64,000 bases of DNA from Bdellovibrionales bacterium (GTDB taxonomy: Bacteria > Bdellovibrionota > Bdellovibrionia > Bdellovibrionales > UBA840): contig JBGCGH010000034.1 of NCBI GenBank assembly GCA_045110695.1, positions 6,233-70,232 of the forward strand. The letters run 5' to 3'. Below are positions 3,271 to 60,311 of this stretch, piece after piece; position 1 is the first letter of the stretch; every line of letters starts with the position of its first letter. The notes under the pieces are model-generated. The model worked only from the letters and a program-made list of their open reading frames with translations. It searched no databases and was not told the DNA's origin. Position numbers and translations under genes: made by a program.

Positions 3271-3933
3271 ATGAATTTAAAGTGGATATCCGTTTTCTCA
3301 ATACTTTTACTAAGTCTTGGTCTGTCGGCTCAAAACATACGGCCAGCCGGTCTTAATGCTTACGCAGGATTTGGATTTGCTGAATATGATATAAGTTCTC
3401 CTGCTTCTAACTTTACCATGGATCGAGGAGTTTTTGCTTCTATCTCGGGGGAAAGAGGCTTTGAGTTTTTAAATTCTTATCTGACTTTTTCCATCAACCT
3501 ACTTCAAAGTAAAGGACAGGCGGACTACAACTACACACCTCTATCCGCACCGTCAGTAGTAGCACCTGGAGTTGATTTTGACTCTAATCTTTTCCAGTTT
3601 GGTTTAGGCTATAAAATAAAGATATTTGATGGCGGTTGGTTTAGGCCGTATGCGGAAATCGGATATCTTGGTGGGTACTATCAGATTGAATATTCTAACG
3701 TAAGCTCTAACATCACTTCTGGCAGTGCCTCAGACGCTAAGACTTCTGACAGCCTATTTGATTCTGGAGGCTATTTAGAAGCCGGTGTAGAAATTGATTT
3801 TAGCGCTGAGTTTGGGCTGAAAATAGCTGCAAGACAGGCTGACATGAAGACTGGCGAACTAGATACACTAGATCAATCAGCAATCGACTATAAAACTACC
3901 GTAGTTTTCTTAAGTGTATTGAAAGCCTTTTAA
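3271..3933 (+). CDS. outer-membrane beta-barrel protein (OmpA-like barrel / porin family type)
   Basis: Signal peptide MNLKWISVFSILLLSLGLSA. Gly/aromatic alternating strands. C-terminal residue is F. Confidence 0.6.
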   Translation: MNLKWISVFSILLLSLGLSAQNIRPAGLNAYAGFGFAEYDISSPASNFTMDRGVFASISGERGFEFLNSYLTFSINLLQSKGQADYNYTPLSAPSVVAPGVDFDSNLFQFGLGYKIKIFDGGWFRPYAEIGYLGGYYQIEYSNVSSNITSGSASDAKTSDSLFDSGGYLEAGVEIDFSAEFGLKIAARQADMKTGELDTLDQSAIDYKTTVVFLSVLKAF

Positions 3934-4223
3934 TCGAAGTTTTCCTGGGGGCGGCACAGCTCCCTTTGACATTCAAAACCAAATCCTACTATCTGATTAA
4001 TTCTCTGAGTAAAAGTTCTTAATTTTGGCAAAATAAAGTTTTTAATCAGCTCATCCCCTCCTGGTTTATAGCGCTAATTTCAGGCCATTAAATCAGCTTA
4101 TTGCCATTATTTACATCAAAACTAGTTTTCCAAGGGAACTAGACTTGCGATTCGGCTCGACCAAAGGTTATCCTAAAGGCTGTCTTGGGCATACTCAAGG
4201 CGAGATAAACTTGGGAGGCAGGG

Positions 4224-4766
4224 ATGAAAATAGCGCCGATAGATATAGCGCATAAATCGTTTAAAAAGAAAACTTTTGGATTTGATACTGAAGAGGTAAT
4301 GGATTTTTTAAGAGCCATTGCTGATGAGTATGAAGATGTAATTCGCGATAGAAATAATCTTAAAGAGCAAATGCGCGACAAAGAACTTTCTATTTTAGAG
4401 TACAAAGAAAGAGACAAAACTCTTCGTGACACAATCACTACGGCTCAGAGAATGTCTGTTAAGGTTCGTGAAGACGCGGAAAAAGAAGCTAAGCTAATAT
4501 TAAATGACGCGAATCAAAAAGCTGACTTAATAGTTAAGGACGCTAGAGATTCTTTAAAAGCTGTTTATCAAGAAATTACAGATATTAAAAGAGCAAAGAT
4601 CCAGTTTGAAAGCCATATGAAGGCTCTTATTCAAACTCATCTAAAAATTATGGAACAAGGCAACGACTTGACTCCCAACTTTGATTTGTCTTCGTCCAAG
4701 AAAACTACAAACACGAAAGATAACTCGGTGAAAGTTACTACACCGGTATCTCCTGTTTCTATGTAA
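4224..4766 (+). CDS. divIVA: DivIVA domain cell-division protein
   Basis: N-terminus MKIAPIDIAHKSFKKKTFGFDTEEVMDFLRAIADEYE is the canonical DivIVA motif, followed by coiled coil. Confidence 0.85.
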   Translation: MKIAPIDIAHKSFKKKTFGFDTEEVMDFLRAIADEYEDVIRDRNNLKEQMRDKELSILEYKERDKTLRDTITTAQRMSVKVREDAEKEAKLILNDANQKADLIVKDARDSLKAVYQEITDIKRAKIQFESHMKALIQTHLKIMEQGNDLTPNFDLSSSKKTTNTKDNSVKVTTPVSPVSM

Positions 4767-4790
4767 TTTAAATTTCATTATAACTTCATG

Positions 4791-4820
4791 GCCTAACTAT
4801 TTATAGTTAGGCTTTTTTTT
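4791..4820 (+). terminator. rho-independent terminator after divIVA
   Basis: GCCTAACTA / TAGTTAGGC 9-bp stem, 4-nt loop, then T8. Confidence 0.8.
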
Positions 4821-4822
4821 GT

Positions 4823-5569
4823 TTAGCGAAGCAACTCAACTTCTACTATCAAGCGCGGATCTTGATTTTCAGTGTGCAGCACTTGCTTGTATTTACCCAC
4901 TTTTATGAATCCATTTTGAGCAAGTACTTGAAAGAACGGGGTTCTTTGAATTGCATTCCTAATAAGAGAATCTCTTTTAAAAGAAGTAAGAGAGTTAAGA
5001 AGAACGGAAAAGTGATTCACATAAAGCTCTGTTAGCTTATCCTCTAATAGCAGACGACTCCTAGTATGGAGGCTCAAAACCTGTTCTAAACTTTCTCTAA
5101 GTTCTTTTGAAGATTCGATGGAGCGCATAAGGTTTGTTAAAAATAAAATCGTATTATCCATGGCAAGTTCTACAGATACTTTTTTTACATGACTAAATTG
5201 GGATAAAAAGCTGGTCGCCATTGCTGATGATAGACCTAAGCGTTGGTACTCAGGCATCATATGAGCCCATTCAATATGAATACTCTTTTGGGACCTGGTG
5301 GAATAGAATGCGTTTGCGAAACCCACTTGCCTTGGCTCTAATCTACCATTATTAGATATCTCATGAAGAAAAGCACGAGCCTCAAAAAACTTTTCCCCGC
5401 TTATCGGGTTTTCTACCTGTCTCAATTCAAAGTGGAAATTTTTATCGTTTTTCTCATACATGAGGCTGCATTGCTCAAGCGCAGCACTTAAATCTAAAGA
5501 AAAAATATAAAGTATGAGAAATAGAAAACGAGTCAAAAAAAGTAATTCTCCGAACAATTGTTTATCCAA
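4823..5569 (-). CDS. hypothetical protein, possible N-terminally anchored GNAT-like acetyltransferase
   Basis: Hydrophobic N-terminus. IHIEWAHMMPEYQRLGLSSAMATSFL resembles GNAT motif A (Q/R-x-x-G-x-G/A). Weak call. Confidence 0.4.
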   Translation of the reverse strand: MDKQLFGELLFLTRFLFLILYIFSLDLSAALEQCSLMYEKNDKNFHFELRQVENPISGEKFFEARAFLHEISNNGRLEPRQVGFANAFYSTRSQKSIHIEWAHMMPEYQRLGLSSAMATSFLSQFSHVKKVSVELAMDNTILFLTNLMRSIESSKELRESLEQVLSLHTRSRLLLEDKLTELYVNHFSVLLNSLTSFKRDSLIRNAIQRTPFFQVLAQNGFIKVGKYKQVLHTENQDPRLIVEVELLR

Positions 5570-39535: not shown

Positions 39536-39964
39536 TCATAGTCTACAATTAATGGAATTCACTTTTTTCATATCAATCCGCCCCATGAAAAGACCCTCGG
39601 GATCAATTACCACAGATTTATTCCAAAGTGGCACAGGGTTAAATAAAGTATCGATTTCAGCTGCTACATGCTTATCGGCACCATATAATACACATATTCC
39701 ATCGAGATTAGATGTCGAACTAAAATTCTCCCAGGTGTGGCCACCATCGTAGGATATTTGAGGATCAACCAATCTAAACACTGAATCTGGTAACAAAGCT
39801 AAATCCGATTGACGTACGGATGTACTGAAAAGCGATTGTAATGCCGCAACAACTTCTGCTTTGGATATCTGATCTAATTCTATGCCTTCAGTTCGATCTG
39901 TAGAATAGGATATAGCATGAACCGAGATAGACAGAATTAATAAGGACAGAAATAAATTTATCAA
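39536..39964 (-). CDS. hypothetical secreted protein
   Basis: Signal peptide MINLFLSLLILSISVHA. No family recognised. Confidence 0.45.
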   Translation of the reverse strand: MINLFLSLLILSISVHAISYSTDRTEGIELDQISKAEVVAALQSLFSTSVRQSDLALLPDSVFRLVDPQISYDGGHTWENFSSTSNLDGICVLYGADKHVAAEIDTLFNPVPLWNKSVVIDPEGLFMGRIDMKKVNSINCRL

Positions 39965-39977
39965 TTGAACCTCCCGC

Positions 39978-40628
39978 TCAGTCTAATTCTAATTCTATGC
40001 TGTTAGGTTCCCATTCTACATCGCCGGCGCCTATAAATATGATTTTGCCGTTATCTTCTAAACTGATATAGTTCAAACGAAGACTATTTCGCTCCTGTTG
40101 GTTTATATAGATCAGTAAACTTGATCCTTCTGGTAAAACAAAAGATCCTGTAATTTCTCTAGCTACCTCATTACAAATATCATCTTTGCTGGTACCTTCT
40201 TTAAGATCTGTAAACTTAGATTCAATTTTACAGCCCTCGAATTGTGGCCTATTAGCTGCCGCTAGATCGAAGTTGGAACGATATTTGTTCCTAACACACA
40301 TGGAAACAAACTCTTCTTTTTGTTTGTCGTTAGCGGCAAAGTTTTCTTTCTCAGCCCAAGCATTACAGCTTTTAGTGAAATCAGAATTTGTACAAGCTAT
40401 CCAGCTATTCCATTGATCCAACTCGGAGTTACAAGCTTTGTTAGCGTCACTCGAATTCACTTCCAAGCAAATATTCCTCCATCCCTGGCCGCCTTTAGAA
40501 AAGACAAACTGGTTGATGACGGATTCTTGGTCAACAAATTTTGATAAGGGCTGTTTACACTGCTGGGCCAGATTTGCATTTAAACTAACAAGACCCAAAA
40601 AAACTAAATTAAAAACTAATAATTTCAT
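39978..40628 (-). CDS. hypothetical secreted Cys-rich protein
   Basis: Signal peptide MKLLVFNLVFLGLVSLNA. About 10 Cys in the mature part. Confidence 0.45.
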   Translation of the reverse strand: MKLLVFNLVFLGLVSLNANLAQQCKQPLSKFVDQESVINQFVFSKGGQGWRNICLEVNSSDANKACNSELDQWNSWIACTNSDFTKSCNAWAEKENFAANDKQKEEFVSMCVRNKYRSNFDLAAANRPQFEGCKIESKFTDLKEGTSKDDICNEVAREITGSFVLPEGSSLLIYINQQERNSLRLNYISLEDNGKIIFIGAGDVEWEPNSIELELD

Positions 40629-40689
40629 TTTCTATCCTTTTTTATCTTATAAAAAATAAAAATGATTAAATTAAACAAACGAACCTGAG

Positions 40690-41250
40690 CTAATTCCAAG
40701 GATCTTTTGTAATCTCTATTTTATTGTACTCTTCTTCAGCCAGCTTAAGGATCTCGTCTATTGCATCATCGGATTGAGCTAAAAATTGATCAAAAAGAGT
40801 GGCTATTTTAATATTGAAATCATCTAAAGCTTTATCTAATTCAGCTTGAGGCCTGGGATATGGGATCGATCTATTTTTCACTTCCCAATTCTTTTCAGCT
40901 TCGATCAGCTGGTCACATAAGTCTTCATAAAGAAAAGGGTAGCTCGTATCCTTAGGTAACTCTTCTCGGTGGAAGTAAGTTATTCTTGGGATACCATTTC
41001 CGCCGCAGGTTCGGATATAAGTAAAAGTTCGAGCTTTTTTTAAAGAGCCTCTGGTCTGTAGCTCACCTCTGAGATCAGAAATTTCTTTGGCAGCTTGAAG
41101 AAAATAGGTCGCTTGAAGAGTGGATCTCCTGACTTTGGCTAAGGCTTCTAAATTTTTCTCGATTCGGTTCTTGGTACTGGATGTGACAACATCGGCACTG
41201 TGAAGTTGGGGGAACACCAAAAAAGCTAGTAATACTAATGGACCTCTCAT
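40690..41250 (-). CDS. hypothetical secreted protein
   Basis: Signal peptide MRGPLVLLAFLVFPQLHSA. No family recognised. Confidence 0.45.
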   Translation of the reverse strand: MRGPLVLLAFLVFPQLHSADVVTSSTKNRIEKNLEALAKVRRSTLQATYFLQAAKEISDLRGELQTRGSLKKARTFTYIRTCGGNGIPRITYFHREELPKDTSYPFLYEDLCDQLIEAEKNWEVKNRSIPYPRPQAELDKALDDFNIKIATLFDQFLAQSDDAIDEILKLAEEEYNKIEITKDPWN

Positions 41251-41401
41251 AGAAGCCTCCGTTTTTTAGGATTGTAGTACTATTCAGTAGTTTGAGAGAT
41301 AATAACCATAGTTTTGAGTGATTGTGTGCAAAATCATGATAGTTTGTAAAAAGTCCCCTAGATATCGATTTAGAAAAATAGAATTATAAATAATAGCTAG
41401 A

Positions 41402-41812
41402 TTAAATTTCAAAAAACTCTATCTCGCCCTTGTAGGGCTTCTTTTTGATGGAATTAAGGCGAGAACGCCAATCACCATCATGCAATTCTAGTTGATTCCC
41501 GGAAGGATCAAGAAAATATATAGAAAGACCTTCGGAGGAACCTTTCGTCCATTCTTTGAGCTCACCTCTATCGACCATGGATCGAAATTTAAGAATTTCT
41601 TCTTCGCTTGCTGAAAATGCAATGTGGGATTTTACGTCCTGGGGAATAAATTCTATATCCAGGGCTAGGCAAAACCAGGTATCTCCAGCTAGAAAGTAAG
41701 CCCCTCTTTCTCATTTTAAAATAGGCGTGAACCCCAATACATCTCGGTAAAAGAAGAAGGAATCGTCTAGATCAATACAACTTAAAGTGATGTGATTCAG
41801 TCCCGTAACCAT
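41402..41812 (-). pseudogene. fosA: FosA-family (VOC superfamily) fosfomycin-resistance glutathione-transferase homologue, interrupted by in-frame TGA at codon 34
   Basis: Not in the ORF track. Reverse frame reads MVTGLNHITLSCIDLDDSFFFYRDVLGFTPILK*ERGAYFLAGDTWFCLALD...KSHIAFSASEEE...SEGLSIYFLDPSGNQLELHDGDWRSRLNSIKKKPYKGEIEF. It is colinear with FosA (MLTGLNHLTL...ARW..GAYL..G.LW.CLS...H.AF...SEG.SFYFLDPDGH.LE.H.G....RL......PYAGM.F), including metal ligands His7, His and Glu. The TGA (41713-41711) falls exactly where FosA has Trp. Confidence 0.8.
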
Positions 41813-41818
41813 TGAGGA

Positions 41819-43012
41819 CTACTTCAAACTTGCCACTAGCTCAGCCAACCTATTCATTCCTATTTCAAATCGGTCTTCAGCCAACGCGTAAGAGAAACGT
41901 AAGTAGCCATCCATTCCAAAAGCATTTCCCGGAACACTTGCTACCAAAAAATCCTCTAAAAATATCTCACTAAACCTTTGAGAGTTAACAATTTTCTCAG
42001 CTTTATAGCTTTTGTTAAAAAGAGATTTAATATCAATCCACAAATAGAATGCACCATCTGGATCGGCAAACTCAACTCCATCAATTTTAGAGATCAATGC
42101 TTTTGCCTTTTCCAATCGTGAGCTAAGAATATCAAGAGAGTTTGCGATTTCTTCCTCTGAGTTTTTTAAAGCATGTAGGCTTGCAATCTGTGCAAAACTG
42201 GGGGCGCAACTAACGGATTGGCTTTGAAGCTTGCTCATAGCCGCCATAATATCTTTTGGCCCAAGTGCCCATCCTACTCTCCAACCGGTCATTGAGTAGG
42301 CTTTTGAAGCACCGTTGATACAAATTGTGCGATCCACAAGTTCAGGGGCAACTTCTAATATATGTGGTGCTACCCTGTCTTTAAAATAAAGTAAGTTATA
42401 GATATCATCAGAAATAACTAATAGCTTCGGGTGGTTTTTTAACACTCCTGCTATAACTTGTAGTTCTTCTTTACTATAGGCAAGCCCTGTCGGGTTACTT
42501 GGTGAGTTTAAAAGAACGGCCTTGGTTCTTGAGTTGATAGAAGACTCAAGACCTTCAGCCGTGATTTTAAATCCATCAGATTCTTTGGTTTCTAAAACAA
42601 CGGGTATTCCCTCAGCCAACTTAATCATCTCTGGATAGGAGACCCAATAAGGGGCAGCGAAAACCACTTCGTCACCTGGATCAATTGTGGCCATTAATGC
42701 AGAGTAAATAATAAATTTTGCTCCAGCACTTACTGTTGTGTTGGCCATCTCATATGTCATCCCAAAATTGGCGTTGTAATCATCTGCAATCGCTTTTCTT
42801 AGATCTGGAAGGCCAGAGGCGGGAGCGTATTTCGTTTGGCCAGCCTGGATGGCCTCCACACCGGCTTTCACAGTTCCAGGAAAGGTATTCCAGTCCGGCT
42901 CTCCTACGGTAAGAGATACAACATCCTTACCCTCCGCCTTCATAGCCTTTGCCTTGGCCGCTAAACTTAAAGTAGGTGATGGTTGTATGGATTGGGCTCT
43001 TTTGCTTATCAT
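41819..43012 (-). CDS. class I pyridoxal-phosphate aminotransferase (aspartate aminotransferase-like)
   Basis: GEPDWNTF, NSPSNPTG, SDDIY, GASKAYSMTGWRVGW (PLP Lys), R near the C-terminus. Confidence 0.9.
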   Translation of the reverse strand: MISKRAQSIQPSPTLSLAAKAKAMKAEGKDVVSLTVGEPDWNTFPGTVKAGVEAIQAGQTKYAPASGLPDLRKAIADDYNANFGMTYEMANTTVSAGAKFIIYSALMATIDPGDEVVFAAPYWVSYPEMIKLAEGIPVVLETKESDGFKITAEGLESSINSRTKAVLLNSPSNPTGLAYSKEELQVIAGVLKNHPKLLVISDDIYNLLYFKDRVAPHILEVAPELVDRTICINGASKAYSMTGWRVGWALGPKDIMAAMSKLQSQSVSCAPSFAQIASLHALKNSEEEIANSLDILSSRLEKAKALISKIDGVEFADPDGAFYLWIDIKSLFNKSYKAEKIVNSQRFSEIFLEDFLVASVPGNAFGMDGYLRFSYALAEDRFEIGMNRLAELVASLK

Positions 43013-55714: not shown

Positions 55715-56261
55715 TTTTAGTCCCCTTTTTCTTTGTTACCTGCTAGCAATCCTTAGCTTTCTAAGCCCGACGGTCCCACTCGACGCAACCTAGATAACCA
55801 GCGATGGTAATCAGTTGTTAAACTTTTTTCTAAACACGTTGGCGCTCTCAATTACATGCATCTCTTTTTTTAAAATCCCGGCAGTCACACCAGATTTTTT
55901 AATTTGCATTTCATTTTAAACACAACAAACCTTTCGGCTAGGGCTGGGGATACCTAAGTCGAGTCGAGCGTTTCTAGACCAAAGCCCCGCTCTTGCTAGA
56001 CTATGATCTAGCTTAAACTACTAAAGTCCTGAACAATTCAAGGCCAAGGTCTAGCTAGTATAAAAGTCCTGCCCGACCTTATTCTGGCGACCTTGATCTG
56101 TATTAATAGTAAGTCCAAGTGATTGTTTCTTTTTAACGAGCTTTTCCCAGTCACTCACCCATTAATTCTTTGGCTTAGTACTAAAGGGTATTATTTTAGT
56201 TGAATAATAAAATCCATTTCAAAGATTCTTGTTTTTAATTACTATATATATAGAGGTACTT

Positions 56262-59638: not shown

Positions 59639-59643
59639 TTTCT

Positions 59644-59671
59644 AGGCCTCTAACAAGAGGCCTTTTTTTTT
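59644..59671 (+). terminator. rho-independent terminator
   Basis: AGGCCTCT-AACA-AGAGGCCT followed by T9. Confidence 0.85.
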
Positions 59672-59973
59672 GCTTAGTATATTCAAATTAGAGCAATCCT
59701 TCGATTCTGAAGTTTTTAACCCCTTTCTAAAAAAAAAGGTAAAATTGATCAGCTCCCATCTTAAACCAATTTATTTTTGTGAAAATCGCTTAAAACTTTG
59801 TAGTTAACCTACTCTCTTACTAAGAGTTATTTCGAGTTTTAAAACTCAACAAAGCCAAATGACTCGTCGCGCACACGCCTGAGCCAGACTAAAGTCGAAA
59901 AAAAATTTTTTAAAATTCCTTCATGATTTCACATACAAGATGCAGCGCGCAAAATAAACCTAGACGAAGGGCC

Positions 59974-60000
59974 TAAAGTTTCCTAGACCAATGTCGATGA
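59974..60000 (+). promoter_or_regulatory. sigma-28 (FliA) promoter of flagellin gene 3
   Basis: TAAAGTTT-CCTAGACCAAT-GTCGATGA: 8/8 at -35, 11-nt spacer, 6/8 at -10. Implies a leader of about 300 nt. Confidence 0.8.
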
Positions 60001-60311
60001 GCCTCTTGAACACGTTGGAGCTATCGATGCAAGTCTCTCACAGTCACAGGACTTCCATTGAGTTAACCAAGTTAGAAAGTGTCAGTCACCATTTTCTAGT
60101 GAGGAAAAGTTCCAAACTTTTTATTAACGGCGAATGCCGGTTCTAGTGGGAAACCACAAAGGGCAAAAAGAGTTCAGAGCATTGGAGAACGAGTCCCCGC
60201 TCTGCCAAAAATGTTTAGATAGAGTTTTCCCAAACTCTATCTTTACTGAACTCTTTTCATTTCCTTTGTTGTTTTAGAGAACCAAGCACTCGTAAACAAT
60301 GGAGGCTTTTA

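Follow-up and report, generated by a model that had tools for sequence, protein, structure and literature searches.

When a bacterial gene is cut by a single TGA and is otherwise well preserved, the stop can mark a dead gene, a wrong base in the assembly or a codon that is read as an amino acid. This question is raised by a FosA-like gene of the vicinal oxygen chelate (VOC) type, with the glyoxalase/fosfomycin-resistance fold, in an uncultured Bdellovibrionales bacterium known from a singleton metagenome-assembled genome (MAG) at NCBI. The locus was studied within a continuous stretch of 64 kb, here called the window. A preliminary description had placed three options side by side, namely very recent inactivation, a sequencing error or suppression of the stop, and in the following we weigh them against the structure of the gene, its relatives, the use of TGA in the window and the kind of mutation involved.

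A FosA-like frame with one internal stop

The frame comprises 136 codons and a terminal TAA. Its translation from 41812 to 41402 begins with MVTGLNHITLSCIDLDDSFFFYRDVLGFTPILK, meets a stop, resumes with ERGAYFLAGDTWFCLALD and runs on to KKKPYKGEIEFFEI before the final stop (Table 1). The TGA at codon 34 (41713-41711) is the only internal stop, and the ATG start, the reading frame and the position of the C-terminal stop are the same as in homologues. Under standard ORF rules the frame yields a 33-aa and a 58-aa ORF. The homology, profile and fold tests were made on the protein with Trp reinstated at codon 34, i.e., the read-through product, referred to here as the W-restored protein. It aligned end to end with FosA of Pseudomonas aeruginosa (1lqk, E = 1.8e-30, residues 1-129) and of Klebsiella pneumoniae (5v3d, E = 1.5e-29, residues 1-135), so that the full-length colinearity with FosA proposed earlier holds. 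The same is true of the position of the TGA, which lies opposite FosA W34, a codon that is TGG in close relatives.

Table 1. Coordinates of the FosA-like frame, its parts and adjoining features in the window.
Feature	Positions	Strand	Remark
FosA-like VOC (glyoxalase/fosfomycin-resistance fold) gene frame	41402-41812	-	136 codons + TAA, broken at codon 34
In-frame TGA	41711-41713	-	opposite FosA Trp34; single G>A transition from TGG
N-terminal stub, 33 codons	41711-41812	-	sole product expected under normal termination; in ORF list
Distal part, 102 codons	41402-41710	-	untranslated unless TGA is read through
58-aa ORF from Met79	41402-41578	-	first canonical in-frame start past TGA; in ORF list
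Codon 91, Gly for Asn	41540-41542	-	P. aeruginosa (PA) Asn92, beside K+ loop; unique against 40 others (FosA of P. aeruginosa and of K. pneumoniae among them)
PLP-dependent (aspartate) aminotransferase	41819-43012	-	upstream neighbour; = MFK8138275.1
Promoter-like TTGAAA-18-TATAAT	41383-41412	-	11/12 matches; overlaps 3' end of frame; consensus match only (sigma-70-like)

The premature stop removes 75% of the protein. Mapped on the AlphaFold2 (AF2) model, the stub spans beta1-alpha1-beta2; it has His7 and is without His63, Glu109 and the K+/substrate loop, so it would be predicted to have no active site. Rescue by re-initiation was considered and rejected, since the ATG that overlaps the stop (AAAATGA) is out of frame and the ORF from Met79 is without His7 and His63.

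The start codon of the frame lies 6 nt past the TAG stop of the aminotransferase gene, and the two genes are probably co-transcribed. The next gene encodes a 186-aa hypothetical protein (40690-41250) and has the promoter-like site upstream of it. Because this site lies inside the 3' end of the frame, the stop need not be polar on the next gene, and judging from the promoter-like match polarity is probably unimportant there. The NCBI entry for the 33-aa stub, MFK8138274.1, is named ‘VOC family protein’, is flanked by the aminotransferase and the hypothetical protein AB8E15_07940, and carries no pseudogene flag. As a separate observation, the 186-aa gene is one of three successive minus-strand genes (142, 216 and 186 aa, 39536-41250) without a Pfam match; their N-termini are hydrophobic and signal-peptide-like by eye, and they may encode lineage-specific secreted proteins.

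Likeness to FosA and relatives in Bdellovibrionota

FosA, a Mn2+/K+-dependent fosfomycin:glutathione transferase, was used as the comparison system. The frame shares about 40% identity over the full length with FosA of P. aeruginosa (PA1129), K. pneumoniae (FosAKP) and Tn2921, with E-values around 1e-30. The AF2 model of the read-through product (pLDDT 93.9) superimposes on these three at TM 0.89-0.91 and rmsd 1.6-2.0 Å (1lqk TM 0.91). FosA leads its PDB matches, followed by FosB and then by FosX. It is built as beta-alpha-beta-beta-beta followed by beta-alpha-beta-beta and a C-terminal helix, the second module being one strand short by DSSP.

All three Mn2+ ligands that characterise FosA and the Fos_GSH family occur in the frame, i.e., His7 (NHITL), His63 (SHIAF, = PA His64) and Glu109 (LELH, = PA Glu110), and one polypeptide holds all of them only upon read-through of the TGA. 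Ser93, Glu94, Ser97, Tyr99 and Arg118 of the K+ loop and fosfomycin contacts are likewise present, with the adjoining Asn (PA Asn92) being Gly. The metal ligands and the SEGxSxYFLDP loop reported in the preliminary description were hence all found. Within the substrate/GSH channel (W34, Y39, W46, C48, Y65, D103, H107, Y128) five residues are kept, whereas the stop takes the place of W34, Ile that of Y65 and Asn that of H107; the latter two replacements are common to the closest relatives (P0001-P0005). According to PMC11933065, which cites Beharry and Palzkill 2005, 16 residues are essential to FosA, and the frame keeps 13 of them: His7, His64, Glu110, Ser94, Glu95, Ser98, Tyr100, Arg119, Tyr39, Trp46, Cys48, Asp103 and Tyr128 in FosA numbering.

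Further differences from FosA concern PA Lys90, which is Thr throughout the clade, PA Arg93, replaced by Ser in the window and by Thr in the relatives, and Gln36, which is Arg. Lys90, Arg93 and Gln36 of FosA reportedly bind glutathione, a finding ascribed to Rigsby and coworkers in 2007; a glutathione-binding role of Lys90, Arg93, Ser50 or Gln36 was not found in the literature that we searched. If these residues do bind glutathione, their alteration leaves the thiol substrate, and even fosfomycin as a substrate, unproven for the clade.

Profile searches place the W-restored protein in the VOC superfamily (Pfam PF00903, Glyoxalase/bleomycin resistance/dioxygenase, 42 bits against a threshold of 20.6). 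The best NCBIfam model is Fos_GSH (NF000496), the equivalog for FosA-type glutathione transferases, where it scored 143.1 bits against a curated cutoff of 180, and it stays far under the cutoffs of all FosA subfamily models (240-310). Since intact relatives score 131-167 on Fos_GSH, the sub-cutoff score is a property of the clade and not a sign of decay. The earlier assignment to the FosA family falls short of the curated NCBIfam Fos cutoffs and has to be narrowed; the name ‘FosA-like’ is justified and the name ‘FosA’ is not.

The closest sequences (P0001-P0007; L001-L003, L161-L163) are 51-60% identical, come mostly from Bdellovibrionota MAGs and are named ‘VOC family protein’ by NCBI. They share with the window gene the motifs KWERGAYFLAG and NTSEGxSxYxLDPSGNQLE, an equal length and a sub-cutoff Fos_GSH score. 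They differ from it in being intact, with TGG at codon 34 and with Asn, not Gly, at position 91. Codon 34 is TGG in 7 of 7 related loci with at least 49% identity, Trp occupies the position in 18 of 20 aligned homologues, and no in-frame stop was seen in the related loci spanning codon 34 (about 160 of the 163 fetched).

No synteny was found between the window and the loci of the relatives, which lie in unrelated gene neighbourhoods, and for this reason the FosA-like family counts as accessory in Bdellovibrionota. One relative (P0005, 57% identical; L002 5959-6384, JACKAN010000016 of MAG HK-STAS-BDEL-6) is without the N-terminal NHIT motif and with it the ligand His7 and Thr9. It may be a second, independent case of decay within this gene family, and it suggests that the family is readily lost. 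According to the preliminary description, further disabling changes in related genomes would point to ordinary decay; the loss of the NHIT motif from L002 follows this pattern. Two side observations come from these loci. The FosA-like homologue of L002 adjoins a 473-aa transposase-like ORF at 3693-5114, and in L001 (3437-3931) and L003 (3693-4154) a homologous ORF of about 155-165 aa lies directly beside the FosA-like gene, a pairing that is absent from the window.

Decoding of TGA at codon 34

Of the 55 long ORFs in the window 11 end at TGA, and so do 13 of the 66 mapped genes, which makes TGA a normal stop here. The gene for RsmD, for example, ends at a TGA that comes 7 residues after its Pfam profile has run out, and the three TGA stops to which attention had been drawn earlier (10697, 11638 and 29928) indeed each terminate a long ORF. 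With 11-13 window genes ending at TGA at the expected length, an alternative genetic code was rejected. Selenocysteine or another structured recoding signal was rejected for lack of a downstream hairpin and of a SECIS or Rfam match. For the 70 nt of RNA downstream of the TGA the MFE is -15.3, while shuffled controls average -19.0 (z = +1.22), so that the native RNA is the less structured of the two, and no SECIS element or other recoding-relevant Rfam family was matched at E<=1. The in-frame UGA by itself might call to mind selenocysteine, or a lineage-wide reassignment of UGA (code 4 or 25), however homologues have Trp there, not Cys or Sec, and we regard both as effectively refuted.

Another possibility is that the TGA is functionally read through, being tolerated or selected, with near-cognate Trp-tRNA(Trp) restoring the enzyme at a low or condition-dependent level. 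Attenuated or heterogeneous FosA-like activity would then be predicted. In bacteria, UGA is read through when Trp-tRNA(Trp) outcompetes RF2, to an extent that shifts with physiology (PMC10570021), and certain tRNA(Trp) variants of bacteria increase it (PMC13092985). In this gene the inserted residue would be the ancestral Trp, the distal 102 codons show no decay and the product models as a confident FosA fold. However, all of this support is generic to any TGG>TGA mutant; Trp insertion would regenerate the ancestral protein, and the same is equally true of any other allele of this kind. Features expected of a read-through site, such as a stop conserved among homologues or a stimulatory context or downstream RNA structure, were not found: no relative shares the TGA at this codon, the downstream RNA shows no stimulatory structure, and the context AAA-TGA-G is like that of genuine terminators, 4 of 13 of which are followed by G, one of them in an identical AAA-TGA-G. 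No tRNA gene, suppressor or unusual, was found in the window, which also does not contain the tRNA(Trp) and RF2 genes of this genome. We consider functional read-through very unlikely, and of the three options named at the outset it is suppression that is left without specific support. A more particular version, in which the lineage has an unusually leaky UGA, for instance owing to a tRNA(Trp) whose anticodon stem is weakened (PMC13092985), and keeps TGA-34 as a source of low-level or stochastic FosA-like enzyme, seems to us more doubtful still.

Background misreading is a different matter. Leaky UGA alleles in general are expected to show background Trp insertion (PMC10570021), and the window TGA is expected to do likewise; a trace of full-length protein of ancestral sequence is plausible. 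Nothing at codon 34 points beyond such background read-through, and the site looks like an ordinary kind of feature without a special decoding mechanism.

Origin and age of the nonsense change

The ancestral gene offers 55 single-base routes to a stop codon, of which 12 are transitions, all 12 being GC>AT; the GC content of the genome is 39%. Eight of the 12 nonsense transitions lie in the four Trp codons, so that a Trp codon is where a stop would be expected to arise, and no coincidence is needed. The emphasis that the preliminary description laid on a stop falling ‘exactly’ at the conserved Trp codon does not survive this count, which makes it a matter of chance expectation.

For the state of the rest of the gene, a family profile was built leave-one-out, and columns with conservation of 90% or more among 41 family members were compared. 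The W-restored protein scores 180 bits on the profile, within the clade range of 161-195, and the window gene deviates at 2 conserved columns (the stop and Asn>Gly at 91), intact members deviating at 0-5. The earlier statement that there are no other defects is right in that neither a frameshift nor a second stop exists, and too strong in that 40 other members have Asn where the window has Gly91. This replacement takes two nucleotide substitutions (AAY>GGT) and is the sole, weak hint of relaxed constraint; no further decay was found in the frame. A profile score in the range of intact relatives means that the inactivation is recent or that the base call is wrong, and the two remaining options of the preliminary description accordingly both stand, the data suiting a very recent mutation and a wrong base call alike.

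An artefact of sequencing, assembly or consensus, or a minority variant that entered the MAG consensus, would imply TGG in the true gene and an intact FosA-like product. The metagenomic source favours this explanation, and so does a frame that is otherwise perfect, with a profile score and conserved-site deviations as in intact relatives. Nor was a second assembly found that would confirm the base. Exact-protein look-ups with five window proteins returned no independent assembly; the aminotransferase neighbour is 100% identical to MFK8138275.1 (‘MAG: Bdellovibrionales bacterium’), encoded on a contig of 122,780 bp, with the next match in the protein database at 60%; a protein-database search with the FosA-like gene and its neighbour gave nothing above 60% identity save the source record; and among GTDB species representatives and JGI metagenomes the relatives found for the FosA-like gene did not exceed 59% identity. 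On the other hand, substitution errors are rare in a consensus at normal coverage, and the TGG>TGA change is the commonest natural route to nonsense. Coding sequence makes up 86% of the window, 55 long ORFs are intact, and inspection of all larger intergenic gaps revealed no further gene broken by one stop, so the assembly is not error-ridden in appearance. Taken together, we regard an artefact or minority variant as fairly unlikely. Among the intergenic regions, those at 55715-56228 (514 bp) and 59639-60311 (673 bp) are unusually long and have no ORF of at least 90 aa, Rfam match or tandem repeat.

The locus is likely a recently inactivated accessory gene, i.e., a nonsense allele or young pseudogene of a FosA-like gene. 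In the assembled sequence it carries a disabling lesion relative to intact homologues, and the family is scattered over non-syntenic contexts, as would be expected of a young pseudogene with one lesion in a dispensable gene. We infer both that the stop is present in the organism's DNA, and not just in the consensus, and that the gene has become dispensable. Under this explanation, the ancestral TGG (Trp34) would have become TGA by one G>A transition in the uncultured Bdellovibrionales bacterium, and RF2 would terminate at codon 34 and release the 33-residue stub. The enzyme would be lost, as the stub retains only one metal ligand of three and no part of the substrate/K+ loop, and the sole source of remaining full-length protein would be the usual background level at which Trp-tRNA(Trp) misreads UGA. 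Ordinary nonsense pseudogenes and leaky UGA alleles have one early stop in a gene that is not essential, arising by a GC>AT transition at a Trp codon, and nothing distinguishes the window gene from this class. Two points count against a young pseudogene: the absence of an excess of other damaging changes suits a base-call error equally, and the genome is a singleton MAG whose nearest homologues are 57-60% identical.

For annotation, pseudogene fragment is a better description of MFK8138274.1 than its present name, and this MAG should not be counted as a carrier of an intact FosA-like resistance determinant. If read-through were substantial after all, the site would be a natural example of expression tuning via a leaky UGA. 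For the family as a whole, Bdellovibrionota hold a distinct FosA-like clade that has kept the metal and K+ sites, is without several of the glutathione-channel residues of FosA, and has fosfomycin as a putative substrate.
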